Assembly (NCBI GenBank): GCA_040878325.1
Contig: JBBDMM010000016.1
Coordinates: 184,354 to 204,353 of the forward strand
From: Acidimicrobiia bacterium
GTDB taxonomy: Bacteria > Actinomycetota > Acidimicrobiia > Spongiisociales > UBA11373
Reading direction: 5' to 3'
DNA length: 20,000 nt
Both the position numbers and the translations under genes were made by a program. Under the pieces are notes generated by a model. That model had not been told where the DNA came from. It saw only the letters and a program-made list of their open reading frames with translations, and searched no databases. Positions 4,462 through 19,960 of this stretch are shown here, in pieces; the first letter of the stretch is position 1, and the number at the start of each line of letters is the position of its first letter.

Positions 4462-4505
4462 CGTAGCGGGGGCGGGATTTGAACCCGCGACCTTCGGGTC
4501 ATGAG
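4462..4505 (-). repeat. tRNA-fMet(CAT) 3'-half copy 1 (att-like scar)
   Basis: Reverse complement CTCATGACCCGAAGGTCGCGGGTTCAAATCCCGCCCCCGCTACG covers the anticodon loop, T-arm and acceptor 3' strand. No D-arm or 5' half is present. Confidence 0.85.
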
Positions 4506-7615: not shown

Positions 7616-7693
7616 CGGCAGCCGAGCCGGGTCAGGGCCCCCCAGCCGGCGACCCTCCGGTCGAAGGCGAGAAACGAAGGAGCGTTGAGACAA

Positions 7694-9151
7694 ATGAGCC
7701 CCCGGCTAAATGGAGATGCACCGCCGGACTCGAGATACGACGTCCTGGTCATCGGCGGCGGCCCGGCAGGCGAGAACGCAGCTGACATCGCCGCCAGGGC
7801 CGGACTCCGCGTAGCCCTGATCGAGCACGAGCTGCTCGGAGGCGAGTGCACCTACTGGGCGTGCATGCCGTCCAAGGCTCTGCTCCGCCCAGGGGAGGCG
7901 CTGGAGGCGTTGCGTCGGGTACCGGGGGCCCAGAGCGCGGCATTGGGGGAAATCGACGTCGATGAGGCCCTCGCCCGCCGCGATTCGCTGGCCAGCCACT
8001 GGGACGACGCCGGTCAGGTGTCGTGGCTCGAAGATGCCGGAGTCGACCTGATACGTGGTCGCGGCCGGATCGGTGGCGAGCGACAGGTGACCGTGCAAGC
8101 TAGGGACGGATCGATTCATCTGTTTGAAGCTAGAAAGGCCGTGGTGGTAGCCACCGGATCCTCGGCGGCTAAGCCGCCAATCGAAGGGCTCGACAGCGCC
8201 GGGGTCTGGGACTCCCGAGACGTTACGACTGCGAAGCAGGTGCCCCGCAGACTCTTGGTCATCGGAGGAGGAGTCGTCGGCAGCGAGATGGCACAGGCCT
8301 GGAAGTGGCTCGGTGCAGAAGAAGTCACCCTGGTCGAGTTGACCGGCCACCTTCTACCCCGCGAGGAAACCTTCGCTGGAGAGGAGTTGGAGGCTGCGCT
8401 ATCCCGCATGGGGGTCGTCGTCCACACATCCGCGTCCACACGTTCGGTAACTCGCGTCAGCCCGGGCGGTCCCGCCACCGCCGAGATCGAATTGGCAGAT
8501 GGTGAGGTCGTGAAAGTGGAGGCCGACGAGATACTCGTGGCCACGGGACGCAGACCAAACACAGGCGACCTCGGGCTGGAGACCGTCGGTCTGGAGGCGG
8601 GTGGCATCATCGAGGTCGATGACCACCTGCAGGCCACGGCTGTGCCCGGTGGATGGCTGTACGCCGTGGGTGACGTGAACGGCAGATCGCTGCTCACCCA
8701 TACCGGAAAGTATCAGGCTCGAATCGCCGGGCGTCATATCGCAGGCGCGGCCACACACGCCTGGGGCGACACCAAAGCGACCCCGCGCGTGGTCTTCACC
8801 AGTCCAGAGATCGCCGCAGTGGGGCTCACCGAGCGGCAAGCGAGAGAACGCGGGGTCGACGTGCGCACCGTCACCTACGACATCGGACGGGTGGCCGCCG
8901 CGGCTGTGCTCGGACGTGGCTACCGCGGAACGTCGAAACTCGTCATCGACGCCGCGCGTGAAGTGATCGTCGGGGCTACCTTCGTCGGCCCGCGGACCGG
9001 AGAACTGCTTCACGCCGCCACCATCGCGATCGTTGCCGAGACACCGCTCGAGACGCTCTGGCATGCCGTCCCCGCCTTTCCGACTCTCAGTGAAGTGTGG
9101 CTGCGTCTGTTGGAGACTTATCGTGACGAGTACGAGAGGGAGTTCGTCTGA
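7694..9151 (+). CDS. Class I pyridine nucleotide-disulfide oxidoreductase (dihydrolipoamide dehydrogenase-like family)
   Basis: GGGPAG FAD motif, GGECTYWACMPSK redox disulfide, GGGVVG, ATGRRPN, AVGD, and C-terminal HAVPAFPTLSE. Confidence 0.9.
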   Translation: MSPRLNGDAPPDSRYDVLVIGGGPAGENAADIAARAGLRVALIEHELLGGECTYWACMPSKALLRPGEALEALRRVPGAQSAALGEIDVDEALARRDSLASHWDDAGQVSWLEDAGVDLIRGRGRIGGERQVTVQARDGSIHLFEARKAVVVATGSSAAKPPIEGLDSAGVWDSRDVTTAKQVPRRLLVIGGGVVGSEMAQAWKWLGAEEVTLVELTGHLLPREETFAGEELEAALSRMGVVVHTSASTRSVTRVSPGGPATAEIELADGEVVKVEADEILVATGRRPNTGDLGLETVGLEAGGIIEVDDHLQATAVPGGWLYAVGDVNGRSLLTHTGKYQARIAGRHIAGAATHAWGDTKATPRVVFTSPEIAAVGLTERQARERGVDVRTVTYDIGRVAAAAVLGRGYRGTSKLVIDAAREVIVGATFVGPRTGELLHAATIAIVAETPLETLWHAVPAFPTLSEVWLRLLETYRDEYEREFV

Positions 9152-12422: not shown

Positions 12423-12686
12423 TCACTGCCCTGCGAAGACCTCGATCTCGGCGGCGCCGGTGTTGCCTCCGGTCGAGGTGGTGACATCGAAGCGGATGAT
12501 CTGCCCGGTGAACGCGACGTCGCTGCGACCCACCGGGAACGGCCCATAGATGTCATCGCCGTCGACCGTGACGGTGAAGGCTTCGGTGGTCGCGGTGCCG
12601 TCGGACATCGAGCGGGTATGGAACCCGACGGCGACCACGTCGACCGCCCTACCGAGGTCGATCACCAGGTAGCCGTCGTCTCCGTC
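12423..12686 (-). pseudogene. C-terminal remnant of a discoidin/F5-8 type C-like domain
   Basis: DGDDGYLVIDLGRAVDVVAVGF...IIRFDVTTSTGGNTGAAEIEVF resembles the C-terminal part of a discoidin domain. There is no credible N-terminal half or start before the divergent redoxin gene. Confidence 0.55.
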
Positions 12687-12757
12687 GCGAAGCGGGCGAC
12701 TCCCGGCAGGATCCTCGAGACCTGACGGGAGGCGCGGTGTCGGGTAGGGTTGCCGCG

Positions 12758-13432
12758 ATGCAGGCGCCGACGTTCACTCTCGAGGACCAGGCGGGACGCC
12801 CCTTCTCGCTCGGCGACCATCTCGACGCCGCAGTGGTCCTCTTCTTCCTCCGCGGCGACTGGTGACCGTATTGCAACGGCCAGCTGGTCAGCTTGGCACA
12901 GGGACATCCCGACTTCACGAACGCGGGTGGGAGGATCGTCGGGATCAGCGTGGACTCGCCGGGGCAAAACGCCGCCATGGTCGAGACGCTGGGCCTGCCG
13001 TTTCCGCTTCTCAGCGACCCCGAGCGAACCGGGGCGATCGAGCCATACGGGGTGGCCGACCCGCGGGACGAGCGCAACATCGCCCTGCCCACAGTCGTCC
13101 TCGTCGGTCCAGACGGCGAGGAGAAGGCGCGATTCACATCGCGCGACTTTGCCGACCGGCCCTCCGAGGACGAGGTCCTCACAGCCTTGAGGTCGCTCGG
13201 CCTACCCCCCGTCGAGCAGGTGTCTCCCGAGCTCGGTGAGGCCCGGCCGGGACCGAATGCCATGCCGTTCCAGAATCTGCTGCCCTACTACCGGGGGGCG
13301 CGCTTCGCGGTGATAGCCATGGCCGGGCGCCACCCCGAGACTCGTGATGAGGCGGACGAATATGTTGCCCTGCTCGACCGCTACACAGAGGCCACGAAAC
13401 AGGCGTATCGCGCCAAACGGGATGCCGGCTGA
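12758..13432 (+). CDS. AhpC/TSA (redoxin/peroxiredoxin-like) protein, predicted selenoprotein with a UxxC motif
   Basis: MQAPTFTLEDQAGRPFSL...VVLFFLRGDW-TGA(12863-12865)-PYCNGQL is in frame with ORF 12893..13432 (IVGISVDS, FPLLSDP). The TGA replaces the first Cys of WCPxC. Confidence 0.88.
12879..12897 (+). promoter_or_regulatory. Candidate bacterial SECIS hairpin of the redoxin gene
   Basis: GCCAGCT-GGTC-AGCT(T)GGC: a 7-bp stem with a bulged U and a G-first apical loop starting 20 nt after the UGA. Folded by eye only. Confidence 0.6.
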
Positions 13433-13476
13433 GGCGCCCAGTAAGCCGGCGGCGGTGGCCGAGGTCTTGACCACCA

Positions 13477-13712
13477 GGCCACATCCCCGGGGCGAACTCG
13501 GTGCCCTGGACGCGTTGGAGGCTCGACTTGGCGCGCTCCCCAAGGATGCCGAGATCGTCGCCTAATGCCGGGGCCCCTACTGCGTGCTCGCCCCGCAGAC
13601 CTTCCAACTTCTCCGCCAGCACGGATATCAAGCCCGCCGGCTTCAAGACGGGCTCCCCGAATAGCGCCGGGCCGGACTACCCGTCGGCACCGGACCGGTG
13701 GAACGGAGCTGA
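13477..13712 (+). pseudogene. Decayed rhodanese domain (type found in ArsR-rhodanese fusions)
   Basis: GHIPGANSVP / frameshift / LDALEARLGALPKDAEIVA*CRGPYCVLA...ARRLQDGLPE*RRAGLPV. TAA at 13563 replaces Tyr, TAG at 13662 replaces Trp, and the 5' end is truncated. Confidence 0.8.
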
Positions 13713-13719
13713 GCGCTGA

Positions 13720-14121
13720 TCAGCGGGTGGCGGTGAGGATCCGGCAGACGCTCTCCGGCGGACAATCGGTCGGGTCGAACCGGGCGGCGGTCTCCGCGAC
13801 GGCGGCCAGGTCCTTACGTAGCCTTCGCAGGTCCCTGATCCTCTGGTCGATATCGCCGATGTGACGGTCGACCAGTTCGGCCACGTGCGAGCACGGGAGG
13901 TCACCCCGGTCCCGGATCCCGAGCACCTCCTTCAGCTCGGCCAGGGTGAACCCCACCGCCTGGCCGGCCCGAATGAACATGAGACGGTCGATCACAGCCG
14001 GGGCGTACTCCCGGTACCCCGATCGGGTCCGCTCCGGTTCGGGCAGCAGACCCGACTCCTCGTAGAAACGGATAGCCGAGGTGGCCACCCCGACCTTGCG
14101 TGCCACCTCACCTATCTGCAT
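13720..14121 (-). CDS. merR: MerR-family heavy-metal-responsive regulator
   Basis: MQIGEVA...AIRFYEESGLLPEPERTRSGYREY HTH and three Cys (LPCSHV, TDC, SVC). Divergent from merA. Confidence 0.85.
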   Translation of the reverse strand: MQIGEVARKVGVATSAIRFYEESGLLPEPERTRSGYREYAPAVIDRLMFIRAGQAVGFTLAELKEVLGIRDRGDLPCSHVAELVDRHIGDIDQRIRDLRRLRKDLAAVAETAARFDPTDCPPESVCRILTATR

Positions 14122-14137
14122 GACGGCACCATACCAC

Positions 14138-14169
14138 TTGACATTCAACCGCACTTGAAGGTGTAGGTT
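14138..14169 (+). promoter_or_regulatory. MerR-type promoter/operator for merA
   Basis: -35 TTGACA (14138-43), an extended 20-bp spacer containing the dyad TTCAA-N6-TTGAA, and -10 TAGGTT (14164-69). Confidence 0.85.
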
Positions 14170-14176
14170 TACCGGA

Positions 14177-15850
14177 ATGAGGACCAAGCGCGAGAAGATA
14201 GATAACTCCGCAGAGCCGATCCGCCTCGCCATCGAGGGGATGACCTGCGACCACTGCGAGATCACGGTGGGCAAGGCGCTCAGCCGGGCCGGGCTGCAGG
14301 ACCCGCAGGTGGACTGGCAGACCGGGACCGCGGTGGGCCTCGCCACCCCTGCGTTCTCGGCCGATAGGGCCACTACGGAGCTGGCGAACGACGGCTACGG
14401 CCTCGTCGAAGACGACGAGCGGGGCTCCGAGCGACTCGCCGAGTCCCCGAGTGACGGAGACCACGACCTGCTCATCATCGGTTCCGGGTCGGCGGCATTC
14501 GCCGCCGCAATCAAGGCCTCCGAGCTGGGGGCCCGTGTCGCCATGGTGGAACGGGGCACAGTCGGTGGTACCTGCGTGAATGTCGGCTGCGTACCCTCCA
14601 AGGCGCTGCTCCGAGCCGCCGAGCACTATCACCGGGCCCGTCACTCTCCCTTCGCCGGGTTGCCCACCGCGGTCGGGAGCGTCGACCTGGCGGCCCTGGT
14701 CGCCCAGAAGGATGACCTGGTGAACACCATGCGCCGGGAGAAGTACGAGGATCTGATCGAGGTGTACGGCATCGAACTGATTTGGGGTGAGGCCCGGTTC
14801 ACCGGACCAGACACCGTGGAGGTCAACGGTCAGGTGGTGTCGGCCGGCCGCTACCTGATCGCCACCGGCGCCGCCCCGTGGGCGCCACCGATCGCAGGGC
14901 TCAACGAGGCCGGCTATCTCACCTCCACCACCGCGCTCGAGCTCACCGAGCTGCCCGCTGAAATGATCGTGGTGGGGGCCAACGCCATTGGCCTCGAGCT
15001 CGGTCAGCTGTTCGCCCATCTGGGCAGCCGGCTCACCCTGGTCGAGGTGCTGGATCGGATCGCACCCTTCGAGGAACCGGAGATCTCCGCCGCCCTCCAG
15101 GCGCACCTCGAGTCGATCGGTACCCGGGTCCTCACCTCGGCCACGATCACCAAGGCGGGCCGCAGTGGCGACCGTCGCTGGCTCGACATCACCATCGCCG
15201 GCATCACGGAGCGAATCGAGGCCGACCAGCTCGTCATCGCCACCGGCCGTCGCGCCGACACCGCCGGCCTCGGCCTGGAGGCCGCGAGAGTGGATACCGA
15301 CCCGCGGGGGCATGTCGTCGTCGACAGTGCGATGGCGACCACCAACCCCCGGGTCTTCGCCGCCGGCGACGTCACCAACCTCCCCCAGTTCGTCTACGTG
15401 GCCGCCCGCTCTGGTGGGGTCGCCGCCGAGCATGCCCTCAGAGGCACCGGCCGACGCATCGACCTCAATAGCATGCCCCGGGTGACGTTCACCAGCCCGC
15501 CCATCGCCTCCGTGGGATTCACCGAGGCTCAGGCCGTCGACGCGGGCCACCGGGTGATCACCTCGCTGCTGCCCCTCAGCGCGGTACCTCGCGCCCTGGT
15601 CGACCATGACACCACCGGACTGGTGAAGCTGGTTGCCGACGAGGCCACCGGCCGGATGCTTGGCGCCCACATCCTCGCCGAGGGTGCCGGCGACGTCATC
15701 CAGGCGGTGGTGATCGGCCTTCAACACCGGGTCACCATCGAAGAGATCGCCGGCACCTTCCACCCCTACCTGACGATGGCCGAGGCACTCAAGCTTGCCG
15801 CCCAAGGATTCTCCAAGGATGTCGCCCACCTGTCCTGCTGTGCCGCTTGA
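14177..15850 (+). CDS. merA: Mercuric reductase
   Basis: N-terminal HMA domain GMTCDHC, GSGSAAFAAA, GGTCVNVGCVPSK, QFVYVAA, FHPYLTMAEALKLAAQ, and the C-terminal vicinal Cys pair LSCCAA. Confidence 0.96.
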   Translation: MRTKREKIDNSAEPIRLAIEGMTCDHCEITVGKALSRAGLQDPQVDWQTGTAVGLATPAFSADRATTELANDGYGLVEDDERGSERLAESPSDGDHDLLIIGSGSAAFAAAIKASELGARVAMVERGTVGGTCVNVGCVPSKALLRAAEHYHRARHSPFAGLPTAVGSVDLAALVAQKDDLVNTMRREKYEDLIEVYGIELIWGEARFTGPDTVEVNGQVVSAGRYLIATGAAPWAPPIAGLNEAGYLTSTTALELTELPAEMIVVGANAIGLELGQLFAHLGSRLTLVEVLDRIAPFEEPEISAALQAHLESIGTRVLTSATITKAGRSGDRRWLDITIAGITERIEADQLVIATGRRADTAGLGLEAARVDTDPRGHVVVDSAMATTNPRVFAAGDVTNLPQFVYVAARSGGVAAEHALRGTGRRIDLNSMPRVTFTSPPIASVGFTEAQAVDAGHRVITSLLPLSAVPRALVDHDTTGLVKLVADEATGRMLGAHILAEGAGDVIQAVVIGLQHRVTIEEIAGTFHPYLTMAEALKLAAQGFSKDVAHLSCCAA

Positions 15851-15869
15851 CGATCGAAGGGAGCAACAA

Positions 15870-17288
15870 ATGGACGACAGGTACGACCTGGCCGTGATCG
15901 GAGCCGGGATGGGCGGCATCAATGCCGCCTTTCGAGCCGCAGGGCTGGGGGGCCGGGTGGCTCTCATCGAACGCCACAAAGTGGGTGGCACCTGAATCAA
16001 CGTGGGGTGTATCCCCACCAAGGCCCAGGTCGGGTCTGCAAAGGCGATTCAGATGGCGCAGCGGGGGGAGGAGTTCGGGTTTCGGATCGGGCGGCTGGAG
16101 GTCGATTGGCCCCGGATCAGGACCCGCAAGGATGAGATCGTCTCGCTCATCCGGAGCCGGCTGGAACGCCGGATCGATGAGCACCCCCGAATCGACCTGA
16201 TCCGCGGCTCCGCCCGCTTCGCAGGCCCCGGCCGCCTCTCCATCGACGGCCGCGAATTGGAGGCGGAGAAGGTGATCGTCGCTTCCGGCGTGGTACCGGT
16301 GGTACCCGACATCCCCGGGCTCGCAGAAGCGGGATTCGAAACCAATGAGACGGTCATGGACATGGACACGCTTCCCGGGTCGATGGTCGTCATCGGTGGC
16401 GGCCCCGAGGGGATGGAGTTTGCCCAGATGCTCCATCGCTTCGGCGTGAAGGTCACCGTGCTGCAGCGGCGGGGCCGAGTGCTCCCCCGAGAGGATGAAG
16501 AGATATCGACAGCGCTGGAGGCGATCCTCGGGGAGGAGGGCATCGACATCCGCACCCGGGCCGAGCCGACCAAGGTCGAGGCTGTCGGCGGGGGCAGGTT
16601 GGCAGTGACCGCCGATGTGGCCGGCACCACCGAGCGCTTCGAGTGCGACCGTATCTTGGTGACCGCCGGGCGTCGACCCCACCATGTCGGCGACATGGAC
16701 CTGGAGGCGGCAGGCGTCGAGGCGGATCCGGAGACGGGAATCGCCATCGACGACACACTGCAGACCACCGCCCCCAACGTCTGGGCCATGGGAGACGTCA
16801 TCGGCCGCCTGCAGTACACCCACTTCGCCGTGTACACCGCCGGGGTGGCGGTGGACAACGCCCTCAAGGGCGCCGGCCGGGCCTACGAGACGGACCGCAT
16901 CCCCGGGGCGGTGTTCACCGACCCGGAGGTGGCCAGCGTGGGACTCACCGAAGAGGAGGCCGTTACCGCGGGGCGGAGCATCAAGATCGGTCGCCAGCCA
17001 CTGCGGCGAGTGGGCCGGGCCATCGCCATGGGCGAGACTGCCGGATTCGTCAAGTTCGTCGTCGACGCCGACACTGACGAGCTGCTCGGCATGCACGTTC
17101 TCGCCCACCTCGGCGCCGATCTCCTGTCGCAGGGGATCCTGATGCTGCACACCGCGGAACGGAGCATCTCTCCGCTTACCAACTGCATATGCGTCCACCC
17201 CACCCTCTCCGAGGGAGTCAAGGCGGCGGTGACCAACCTGAAACCTGTCGAGGCGGTCGCCACCGCAGCCGGCGACCTGGCCGACTGA
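15870..17288 (+). CDS. MerA/RclA-like flavin disulfide oxidoreductase, predicted selenoprotein (UxxxxC active site), 472 aa
   Basis: AAGGGAG RBS and ATG 15870. MDDRYDLAVIGAGMGG...IERHKVGGT-TGA(15993-15995)-INVGCIPTK is in frame with ORF 16002..17288 (GGGPEG, TAGRRP, AMGD, LQYTHFA, VFTDPEVASVG, HPTLSE). Confidence 0.88.
16021..16037 (+). promoter_or_regulatory. Candidate SECIS hairpin of the Sec oxidoreductase
   Basis: AGGCCC-AGGTC-GGGTCT stem-loop with the loop 31 nt after the UGA. A second hairpin, GTGGGG-TGTAT-CCCCAC, lies at 16002-16018. Folded by eye only. Confidence 0.45.
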
Positions 17289-17326
17289 AGCGGATGAGTC
17301 CCCAGCGCATGTCCGACATCTAGTCA

Positions 17327-17461
17327 GTGCCCGTCGGCCACGGCCACCGCTACTCCCCCAGCGCCTACATCGACTTCGGGATCACTGATCCCCCGGGCCG
17401 GACCCAAGCCGACGCGACCAGGCTCAAGGCCCTCTTCGCCGCCGAAGAGACCGGCGACTGA
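17327..17461 (+). pseudogene. Probable C-terminal remnant of an alpha/beta-hydrolase-family membrane protein
   Basis: VPVGHGHRYSPSAYID...PPGRTQADATRLKALF resembles, from memory, the PxGHGHxY...PxGW...D..RL C-terminus of Abhydrolase_9 proteins. An in-frame TAG precedes it at 17321. Confidence 0.45.
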
Positions 17462-17598
17462 CTGCGGCGCGGCGGCCCGTTCTTGGCTTCCGGAAGGGCA
17501 GCCCGCCGAGCACGAGGACAACGAGAGACCGGTCCGACCGGCCCCGGAGGGCCACCCGAACCGGTGTTCCCATTGGCTCTCGGCGCCCCGCTGGGGCA

Positions 17599-18561
17599 CT
17601 AGACAGCTATCGCTTTCTCCGCCTCCTCAGCCCTCGCGACGATGAAACCGGCGAGATCCACGAAGGGATCGAACCCGATCACCTGGGGTGCGTCGGCTAC
17701 GAAGTTGGAGAGGGCGTTGATGTCGTAGAAGTAGGGCCGGCCGTCTCTGGAGTTCACCAGATACTCCACGCCACCGAGGTCCATTCCCGCGCCTTCGATT
17801 ATCCGCTTCGTGATATCGATCACATCCTCGGGTGGTGTGAACGCCTCCACCGGGAGCCCCCGGCCGGAGACGCCGTCGGCGATGCCCGGGACTTCGCAGT
17901 AGTCGGCCGGGCACAGGTTGAATGAGCCCGGGAGGAGCCGGAGGCGAATCGCGTAGAGATACTCGCCGTCGAGGATCTCCACCCTCACGATGCTGTCGCC
18001 CTCTGCGGGCAGATGCTCCTGCACCAGTGCCAAGCCGTCGTAGCTCAGATCCTCCAGCTCACCTGATCGTACGGCCGCTTCCAACTCAGCGGTGTCGGCG
18101 AACGACCGGATGCCCGCTCCGCTCCCGCCGAGATTGGGCTTCACCAGAATCGGGAAGCGAAGACCAGTCGCGGCTTCGATCACCTCCGCCGGGTCGCTGA
18201 ACGGTCTTCCCGCCGGATGACTGACACCCAGGTCTGCGAGCAGCTCGAGCTGACGTGTCTTCGATATCTCGTATTCGAAGGCTGCGGCCCCGTTGATGAC
18301 CGGCACTCCATCGGTATCGAGTCGCCGAAGGAGATCCTGAGTCCTGGCAATCGCCGGGCCGTTCCCCCTGGTCCAGGCGGACGGGCTCATCCGGTTGACC
18401 ACCAGACGGCAATCCTCGAGCGCACCCACCAGGTCAATCCGCGAGTCCGAGGCGTCCACCGGCAAATACTCCACACCACGCCGATCCAGCTCGGCGAAGA
18501 GCGGTTTGAACCAGAGCGGATGCTCGTACAAGATTCCGATGGGTTGTGTGATGGCTCTCAT
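17599..18561 (-). CDS. RimK/glutathione-synthetase-like ATP-grasp protein
   Basis: LYEHPLWFKPLFAEL, VNRMSPS, FPILVKPNLGGSGAGI, LVQEHLP, FNLCPADYC, GGVEYL and YDINALSNF. Confidence 0.85.
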   Translation of the reverse strand: MRAITQPIGILYEHPLWFKPLFAELDRRGVEYLPVDASDSRIDLVGALEDCRLVVNRMSPSAWTRGNGPAIARTQDLLRRLDTDGVPVINGAAAFEYEISKTRQLELLADLGVSHPAGRPFSDPAEVIEAATGLRFPILVKPNLGGSGAGIRSFADTAELEAAVRSGELEDLSYDGLALVQEHLPAEGDSIVRVEILDGEYLYAIRLRLLPGSFNLCPADYCEVPGIADGVSGRGLPVEAFTPPEDVIDITKRIIEGAGMDLGGVEYLVNSRDGRPYFYDINALSNFVADAPQVIGFDPFVDLAGFIVARAEEAEKAIAV

Positions 18562-18767: not shown

Positions 18768-18810
18768 TAGCGGGGGCGGGATCTGAACCCTCGACCTTCG
18801 GGTTATGAGC
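18768..18810 (-). repeat. tRNA-fMet(CAT) 3'-half copy 2 (degenerate att-like scar)
   Basis: Reverse complement GCTCATAACCCGAAGGTCGAGGGTTCAGATCCCGCCCCCGCTA. It has the canonical CTCATAA loop, two T-arm substitutions relative to copy 1, and no 5' half. Confidence 0.82.
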
Positions 18811-18952: not shown

Positions 18953-19471
18953 TCACCCTCTCAGGGTTCTGTGGATGTCTTTCATCAACAGGACGAGGTG
19001 CAGCGCGTCGGTAGGTGACTGTGCGAATTCGGGGATGAGATTGACGTAGAAGTCTCGAGCCTCCGGCCTCTCGGCGTGAACAAGTAGGCCCCGGCATCCG
19101 ATCTCAACTCCCAACTGCGCAGTCCGACCGATGGCATCGGCGAGGAGACCGGCACCGAGTCCTCGGCCTTCGTGCTCTTGGGATACACCAAGTCGGGCGA
19201 GCAGCGCAACGGGCTGCGGGTACCGTCCCGCACCCTGGCGCGCCCGTGCCGGAGCATCCTCGATCGAGATACTGGCCATCGACCAGGCGTAGTAGGCGAC
19301 CACCAGGACACTGTCATCCGGAGTGACGACCAGCACCTTCGCTGTTCCCGCCGCGTGGGCCTGTCGTGCATGGTGGCGTAGCCAGTCGGTCTGTTCGGCG
19401 GATCGACACTCGAACGGGTCGACGATGTCACCGGCCTCCAACAGCCTGGGAGGCCGATACCGTTGCGTCAC
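18953..19471 (-). CDS. GNAT acetyltransferase toxin (TacT/AtaT family)
   Basis: GTG start overlapping the antitoxin stop (GTGA). Motifs FEC...WLRHHA, VVAYY, PVALLARLGVS...GRGLGAGLLADAI, LLVHA, ARDFY and LMKDI. Confidence 0.9.
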   Translation of the reverse strand: MTQRYRPPRLLEAGDIVDPFECRSAEQTDWLRHHARQAHAAGTAKVLVVTPDDSVLVVAYYAWSMASISIEDAPARARQGAGRYPQPVALLARLGVSQEHEGRGLGAGLLADAIGRTAQLGVEIGCRGLLVHAERPEARDFYVNLIPEFAQSPTDALHLVLLMKDIHRTLRG

Positions 19472-19755
19472 TCGTCGGTGAACGGCGACGGCCGTGCCAT
19501 CAACTCGCGGAGCCCGGTCAGGCTGCGAGCACGACGACGGTTGATCTCCTCCCACGCGGCTCGAGCCTCAGGTTCGAGCACAAACTTGGTCCGGTCGGCC
19601 AGCACCCGACGGGACGCCACGGTCAGATTGGTGATGACGAAGTCGGTCAGGTCGGTTCCGGACGCCGTTACCGCCCGGTCAATGAGCGCACGATCCTCAG
19701 GAGTCGTCCGCACCTCGAGACGCTCACTGCGAGTTCGCTTCGTGCCGGTGGCCAT
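19468..19755 (-). CDS. DUF1778 ribbon-helix-helix antitoxin (TacA/AtaR family)
   Basis: RSERLEVRTT...LIDRA...LTDFV...VLADRT.F.L; 95 aa; AAGGA RBS; directly upstream of the GNAT gene. Confidence 0.9.
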   Translation of the reverse strand: MATGTKRTRSERLEVRTTPEDRALIDRAVTASGTDLTDFVITNLTVASRRVLADRTKFVLEPEARAAWEEINRRRARSLTGLRELMARPSPFTDE

Positions 19756-19915: not shown

Positions 19916-19960
19916 TGGTAGCGGGGGCGGGATTTGAACCCGCGACCTTCTGGCTCCGAA
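19916..19960 (-). repeat. tRNA 3' fragment copy 3 (fMet-type T-arm/acceptor with CCA and a divergent anticodon loop)
   Basis: Reverse complement TTCGGAGCCAGAAGGTCGCGGGTTCAAATCCCGCCCCCGCTACCA. Identical to copy 1 over more than 30 nt, with no D-arm upstream. Confidence 0.82.

Follow-up and report, generated by a model that had tools for sequence, protein, structure and literature searches.

Why would a gene with an in-frame UGA codon, of the kind that encodes a selenoenzyme, stand directly behind a mercuric reductase gene and its MerR-type promoter? This question is raised by a stretch of 20,000 nucleotides (nt) from an Acidimicrobiia bacterium (contig JBBDMM010000016.1, positions 184,354 to 204,353; hereafter, the window), in which a merR-family gene is divergent from merA, according to the open reading frame (ORF) coordinates, and merA is followed by the gene of a flavoprotein reductase, here called SecRed. 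G000 denotes the genome carrying the window, and L, G and C numbers denote loci, genomes and contigs. The three genes were confirmed where the preliminary description had placed them. As judged from sequence comparison, SecRed represents a real and apparently uncatalogued selenoenzyme family, whose association with mercury and other metals is recurrent but non-obligate, the three-gene architecture itself being a genus-level one. As for its function, a selenocysteine-dependent thiol/selenol-repair reductase recruited into metal-stress operons is the reading to which we would give roughly half of our confidence.

The UGA at 15993-15995 is almost certainly read as selenocysteine (Sec), at residue 42, so the proposal that the second gene encodes a selenoenzyme stands. 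TGA replaces the first Cys of a CxxxxC centre, in the site context GGTCxNVGCxPxK, and it does so in all 28 related loci that cover the site (56-98% identity, several phyla), which amount to 16 lineages at 88% identity, with titles that include Acidimicrobiia, Chloroflexi and Bacillota; the nearest named relative, at 98%, belongs to the same genus. These 28 comprise 25 motif-matching loci, L034, and G473 and G506 (both via protein search); among the 33 related loci retained after dropping a 17-residue match (L017), 26 reach the site and 7 do not. Cys homologues are only distant: the closest full-length Cys proteins in a 50%-representative library show 40-41% identity, there is no Cys form inside the SecRed clade among the sequences examined, and the homologues from a plasmid search were all either Cys-type or unannotated, with 39-41% identity. 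Every one of the 120 homologues listed among 183 protein matches at E<=1e-100 (the set to which all counts over 120 refer) is annotated with a start past residue 42. Furthermore, selA, selB, selD and the tRNA-Sec gene (selC) are all present in G000, and a strong full-length selA occurs in 9 of 10 other host genomes, G437 having weak matches only. Matches to the UGA pattern in two viral contigs and in G890 were rejected as chance, non-coding occurrences.

The RNA past the UGA also appears constrained. Synonymous codon identity at conserved degenerate sites reaches 0.63 there, vs 0.37 elsewhere (14 sequences), exceeding all 153 other windows compared, and two short hairpins are kept in 17 sequences, where 96.6% of 204 cells can pair, double changes affect two pairs and none of 500 shuffles pairs as highly, although all these figures are inflated by kinship and protein constraint, part of the pairing being forced by the protein motif. 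Because of this inflation, the element is graded only as SECIS-like (SECIS, Sec insertion sequence). Single-sequence folding gives a z of -1.87, and a genome-wide TGA motif scan of G000 was too noisy to yield a SECIS consensus for the genome.

What kind of enzyme carries this residue? SecRed is, according to its predicted structure, a class-I flavoprotein disulfide reductase, with Pyr_redox_2 and Pyr_redox_dim domains and an alignment-based AlphaFold model (predicted local distance difference test, pLDDT, 95.8; 34.5 for the single-sequence model) that reaches template-modelling (TM) scores of ~0.9 to lipoamide dehydrogenase (LipDH) and MerA structures. Its motifs are U42-xxxx-C47, GGGPEGME, LQRR and H443-x4-E448, and its C-terminus, AVATAAGDLAD, has no vicinal Cys pair. 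Among the listed homologues, a C-terminal CC is found in 0/120, His-Pro-Thr/Ser in 112/120, GPEG in 102/120 and [LM]QR in 104/120; where they have been given names, these are LipDH, mercuric reductase or generic FAD oxidoreductase, and two relatives (L009 and L075) are frameshifted. The comparison of signatures indicates that SecRed is not MerA, since His-x4-Glu is kept, Glu99 and His443 replace Tyr264 and Tyr605 of MerA in a pairwise alignment, and the CC tail is absent. It scores 382 bits against TIGR02053 (cut-off 454) and falls below the cut-off of all 25 best NCBIfam models, including the LipDH, glutathione reductase (GR), mycothione reductase (Mtr), RclA and PRK06370 equivalogs, with PRK06370.1-4 as its top match (408 bits). 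In a tree built with FastTree from 84 rows, whose supports are SH-like (Shimodaira-Hasegawa-like) only, with no bootstrap, SecRed forms its own clade (100), separate from the CC-tailed MerA clade, and two more N-truncated records join it (94).

Other reductases of this type were met along the way. P0129, P0132, P0157 and P0163 are 41-44% identical and their records start just past the first active-site position, which makes them possible extra Sec subfamilies. A second UxxxxC type, at L074:4565-5990 (G463:C214), has a C-terminal CC tail and His-Pro-Thr, is frameshifted in the assembly and is placed as sister of the MerA clade (SH-like 97); CopZ-like genes precede it and AhpC/TSA and membrane genes follow it, and L074:2868-4061 gives a weak PQQ_2 match.

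The first gene of the pair can be assigned with confidence from its sequence as a true mercuric reductase, MerA: its product scores 560.3 bits against TIGR02053 (cut-off 454.45) and has the redox pair C133/C138, Y190, Y531 and the vicinal C554-C555 in a C-terminus ending in CCAA. All four features of the MerA signature given in PMC8261052 (C207/C212 redox pair, Y264, Y/F605 and a vicinal C-terminal Cys pair) are therefore present in the product of 14177-15850. MerA and SecRed of this locus share 36% identity. Their nucleotide-site motifs are VEVLD and LQRR, respectively, and, taking as a working rule that LQRR/[LM]QR points to NADPH and VEVLD to NADH, SecRed probably uses NADPH and the adjacent MerA presumably NADH.

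Are both genes expressed together? A gap of 19 nt separates the merA stop from the SecRed ATG, with GGGAG inside, and no terminator-like site was found in 13500-17700 (vs 1.2 expected in shuffles), in a scan that is weak for high-GC organisms; RNA folding at the junction is at the shuffled level (z 0.11). This agrees with the short gap, own ribosome-binding site and lack of a terminator that had been described, as does the promoter ahead of merA, whose spacer holds the dyad ACATTCAA-N6-TTGAAGGT, matching in 7 of 8 positions; a general promoter scan, restricted to 16-18-nt spacers, misses this 20-nt-spacer promoter. The same type is found upstream of the SecRed operons in L011 and L023 and of merB in G008, and the other merA loci of the host family have promoters with 19-nt spacers. 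The reported absence of merT, merP, merC and merB holds within the window (18 ORFs scanned) but not genome-wide: MerT (PF02411) was not found in the G000 genome and no genome-wide search was made for merP and merC, but a stand-alone MerB-family gene (PF03243, 88.5 bits) lies ~170 kb from the locus, at G000:C16:27763-28506 (L093:1258-2001). It has an in-frame TGA, in FT-U-STMNLF, and a weak match to SaoL NF040728 (61/140), so that a MerB-like selenoprotein is probable. Nor is the minimal mer unit unusual on its own, merR-merA without merT or merP being common in the host family.

The regulator matches MerR_1 and MerR-DNA-bind in Pfam but lies under every NCBIfam cut-off (CadR-PbrR 105/151, MerR 99/151), including that of the canonical mercury-responsive MerR (TIGR02051, 99.4 < 150.85), and its cysteines, C77, C120 and C126, do not follow the canonical three-Cys spacing. 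A role in mercury sensing is supported by context, namely merA here and merB in the closed genome G008, where a 69%-identical orthologue, divergent from merB, has the same promoter type. Since that promoter drives merB together with a DF-like gene, mercury-type regulation is supported, and its cargo is shown to be exchangeable.

The surroundings of SecRed were surveyed over 39 loci, which collapse to 20 lineages and, leaving out 5 with flanks below ~1 kb, to 15 evaluable ones, taking neighbours within 6 kb. In 4 of the 15, belonging to at least two phyla, merA or merB is such a neighbour: the present locus; L008, where merA, merB, MerE-like and AhpC/TSA genes lie upstream on the same strand; L034, with merA 5 kb off; and L038, with a 78%-identical merA and SecRed in convergent orientation, 1.2 kb apart. 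Two more lineages have SecRed in other metal operons, MerR-copA-copZ-DUF7482-SecRed (L011) and MerR-DF family-SecRed (L023), so that same-strand MerR-type promoters with 20-nt spacers precede it in three lineages, with merA, copA-copZ or a DF-family gene as cargo. Thiol-redox genes (thioredoxin, glutaredoxin, AhpC/TlpA, CMD) are neighbours in 8/15; the label "CcdA-like" used for some neighbours was given by eye on the basis of a motif, Pfam giving no match and two such proteins not matching each other in BLAST.

It is the combination of a disulfide-reductase-type active site, these thiol-redox neighbours, the metal-type promoters, the position divergent from ArsR and merB in L034 and the clade apart from MerA that favours thiol/selenol repair, which among the options listed in the preliminary description is also the one that seems to fit the SecRed active site best. 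SecRed would be a homodimeric, NADPH-dependent enzyme in which Sec replaces the substrate-facing (interchange) Cys. By analogy with glutathione reductase and lipoamide dehydrogenase, electrons would pass from NADPH to FAD and then, through Cys47, to the Se-S bond, and the selenolate of Sec42 would attack a disulfide, selenenylsulfide or metal-bridged thiol, with His443'-Glu448' acting as acid/base. In this way the enzyme might re-reduce thiol/selenol pools or small thioredoxin-fold proteins (AhpC, glutaredoxin, TlpA, DF-family) under thiol stress. It would travel as island cargo, in keeping with its patchy occurrence (3/401 genomes of the class, 6/94 and 1/201 in two other groups) and its position here within a repeat-bounded island, with several placements under metal-responsive regulators. 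At the present locus, co-transcription with merA and induction by mercury are most likely, and the enzyme would serve repair in an accessory role, outside core mercury detoxification. Several points weigh against such a role. No one partner gene recurs throughout the lineages; metal and thiol-redox neighbours are both missing from 5/15 lineages (L007, L012, L014, L051 and L073); L038 and L034 lack a thiol-redox neighbour even though mer genes are near; a terminator-like hairpin stands right before SecRed in L008 (4 such sites found vs 3.0 in shuffles); and the selenolate is itself an expected target of mercury, a difficulty for any repair enzyme that mercury induces.

Is the adjacency then incidental? 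A general redox selenoenzyme and merR-merA could be independent cargo of one island, with no functional link to mercury, a reading that we consider rather unlikely. SecRed lies directly behind merA in 1/15 lineages, that is, in G000 and G001 only (97% DNA identity), and in the host family, where merA exceeds the cut-off in 6/41 genomes, SecRed is restricted to these two and absent from the five other genomes with merA. A merR-merA-SecRed order conserved beyond close kin is not supported, and the metal link is upheld by the mer genes within 6 kb and by the G008 orthologue driving merB. The different, convergent order in L038, the merB and DF-like cargo of the regulator orthologue in G008 and a decayed rhodanese remnant beside merR are what independent cargo would leave. 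Nonetheless, the 19-nt spacing with its ribosome-binding site and without a terminator, and the same-strand position behind MerR-type promoters in three lineages, speak against chance, as does mer proximity in 4/15 lineages, vs ~0.1% expected for a random gene (a rough estimate of our own, from merA in 6/41 and 21/94 genomes), even if shared islands inflate that contrast.

A more daring possibility, which we hold to be doubtful, is that SecRed is a second, selenium-based kind of enzyme handling Hg(II) or organomercurials. The flavin-wired Sec42 selenolate might strip Hg(II) or RHg+ from thiolates without the CC relay of MerA, and the mercury might then be reduced at the flavin, passed to MerA or sequestered as Hg-Se. 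The mer genes near SecRed in those four lineages and at least two phyla would fit, and so would L034, where SecRed faces ArsR and merB divergently, a position often occupied by merA. The best match of SecRed among solved structures is MerA 5x1y, and the CC-tailed UxxxxC gene is sister to the MerA clade. Table 1 of PMC13188914 contains other mercury-related selenoproteins. Against it, three of the four features in the MerA signature are missing from SecRed, all four mer-linked lineages already have a merA-type gene within 6 kb, 11/15 have no mer gene nearby, and MerA is not enriched at the genome level: in the phylum of G435 it occurs in 4/11 SecRed carriers vs 17/83 others (Fisher p 0.26), a test on incomplete metagenome-assembled genomes (MAGs) with 15 candidates scored per genome and kin that are not independent. 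If mercury handling were nevertheless true, the mer systems of several phyla would have an arm that has been overlooked, made up of UxxxxC reductases, the CC-tailed sister of MerA among them.

The suggestions that SecRed acts in place of MerB or as an obligate heterodimer partner of MerA have little left to recommend them. No merB is in the cluster, and the fold is MerA-like at 36% identity; however, merB stands beside SecRed in L008 and L034, G000 has its own MerB-family gene, the fold is unrelated to that of MerB, no MerA was found in 7 of the 11 carriers of G435's phylum (incomplete MAGs), and the nucleotide preferences, presumed from the motifs as above, look different for the two enzymes. 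Weakest of all, a pseudogene with TGA as a nonsense mutation, for which the frameshifts of L009 and L075 could be invoked, is hardly credible with TGA in 28/28 loci of 16 lineages, a strong selA in 9/10 hosts, constrained synonymous sites and hairpin, and an intact FAD-binding segment upstream of the TGA.

The locus lies inside a 14.3-kb segment bounded by 42-nt tRNA-half-like repeats. The other contents of this segment include an AhpC-Sec candidate, DUF3179, another reductase gene and a rhodanese in decay. The repeat matches the end of the C13 tRNA-Met over 26 nt, and several copies, a few kb apart, occur in the relatives G001 (C101), G005 (C31) and G008, which suggests, at the sequence level, that cargo modules have accreted in tandem at a single tRNA site. 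The second and third copies of the repeat enclose a 1.15-kb module (18953-19755: a TacA1-like antitoxin, PF08681, then an ORF that looks like GNAT by eye, with no family match). Beside merR, 13428-13680 is the rhodanese remnant, with two stops and 52% identity to an ArsR-rhodanese fusion near merA in G003. At 12423-12700 an F5/8-domain gene is represented by its 3' part only; because G001 keeps the full gene plus a thioredoxin at the same place, ~1 kb is read as deleted in G000. A third, long-branch class-I reductase of Cys type (7685-9151) lies beside DUF3179 and DUF547. Elsewhere in G000, a second mer locus (C2:157362-158123, L057) has merR, a 19-nt-spacer promoter and only the C-terminal end of merA, a full merA being present at a locus resembling it in G001, and the noisy TGA scan gave a candidate TlpA/thioredoxin-like selenoprotein, FWAEW-U-SVC (C12:238523, minus strand).

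Table 1. Features of the locus and of its island, in window coordinates.
Feature	Position	Strand	Remarks
merR-family gene	13720..14121	-	133 aa; Cys77, Cys120, Cys126; MerR-family metal-responsive regulator
MerR-type promoter/operator	14138..14169	+	TTGACA, 20-nt spacer, TAGGTT
merA with N-terminal HMA (NmerA) domain	14177..15850	+	557 aa; TIGR02053 above cut-off
Intergenic spacer, 19 nt	15851..15869	+	contains ribosome-binding-like GGGAG
SecRed, predicted class-I flavoprotein disulfide reductase	15870..17288	+	472 aa; ATG 15870, stop 17286-17288
In-frame UGA (Sec42, almost certainly)	15993..15995	+	context GGT-U-INVGC-IPTK
SECIS-like element, two short hairpins	16002..16036	+	apical GGU loop in second, ~32 nt past UGA
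AhpC/TSA-family selenoprotein candidate	12758..13432	+	W-U-PY-C (UxxC); PF00578 95 bits with TGA read through
tRNA-half-like direct repeat, left copy, 42 nt	4464..4505		island boundary
tRNA-half-like direct repeat, second copy, 93%	18768..18809		island boundary
tRNA-half-like direct repeat, third copy, 86%	19919..19960		repeat comparison

What does this family add? A literature search found no paper on SecRed, although the candidates of Deng et al. 2026, reportedly unvalidated new selenoproteins from groundwater MAGs, might include it. In mammalian thioredoxin reductase, Sec is on a C-terminal arm and Cys is kept at the flavin-adjacent pair. The available portion of the 2026 inventory of 119 bacterial selenoprotein families (PMC13188914) contains no UxxxxC class-I reductase, and among the examples it lists there is no natural one with Sec at the flavin-adjacent catalytic pair. 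SecRed would thus be a multi-phylum addition to the selenoproteins, truncated by annotation in all 120 listed records, and a natural enzyme for asking what Sec adds at the interchange site. Moreover, its recurrent placement under mercury- or metal-type regulators would make the bacterial antagonism between mercury and selenium testable with one operon.

Compared with known systems, Sec in a mercury or metal context has precedent in that inventory (PMC13188914 Table 1), in MerT-like proteins, the UxxU "putative mercuric reductase" NF041115 (a 74-position metal-binding model), SaoL and HgcA/HgcB, but none of those listed has a class-I disulfide reductase domain. As an FAD/NAD(P)H oxidoreductase using Sec, SecRed resembles mammalian thioredoxin reductase and the two Sec flavoenzymes given there, a CoA-disulfide-reductase-like one (UGxP, TIGR03385) and the type III SQR (HxxU, NF049943), although it differs from these two in family and motif. 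RclA and hypothiocyanous acid reductase (NF040477, NF041853; PDB 6kgy) are, like it, MerA-like proteins without a CC tail, the RclA type acting in oxidant stress, yet SecRed scores 267/740 and 234/650 bits against them, and the same part of the inventory reports no Sec for RclA types. With LipDH, glutathione and mycothione reductases and the PRK06370 FAD oxidoreductases it shares a CxxxxC-type centre, His-x4-Glu and, for LipDH, a TM of ~0.9, but it lies below every cut-off and has Sec and the GGGPEGME and LQRR motifs, and E1/E2 genes neighbour it in only 1/15 lineages (L075). Finally, SecRed departs from MerA (TIGR02053; PDB 5x1y, 1zk7) by its Sec in place of the first Cys, by Glu and His for Tyr264 and Tyr605, by the lack of a CC tail and by its separate clade. 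MerA is nonetheless a frequent neighbour of SecRed and its best solved sequence match (5x1y), the two being alike in fold (TM 0.91 to 5x1y) and in the position of the inner redox pair.

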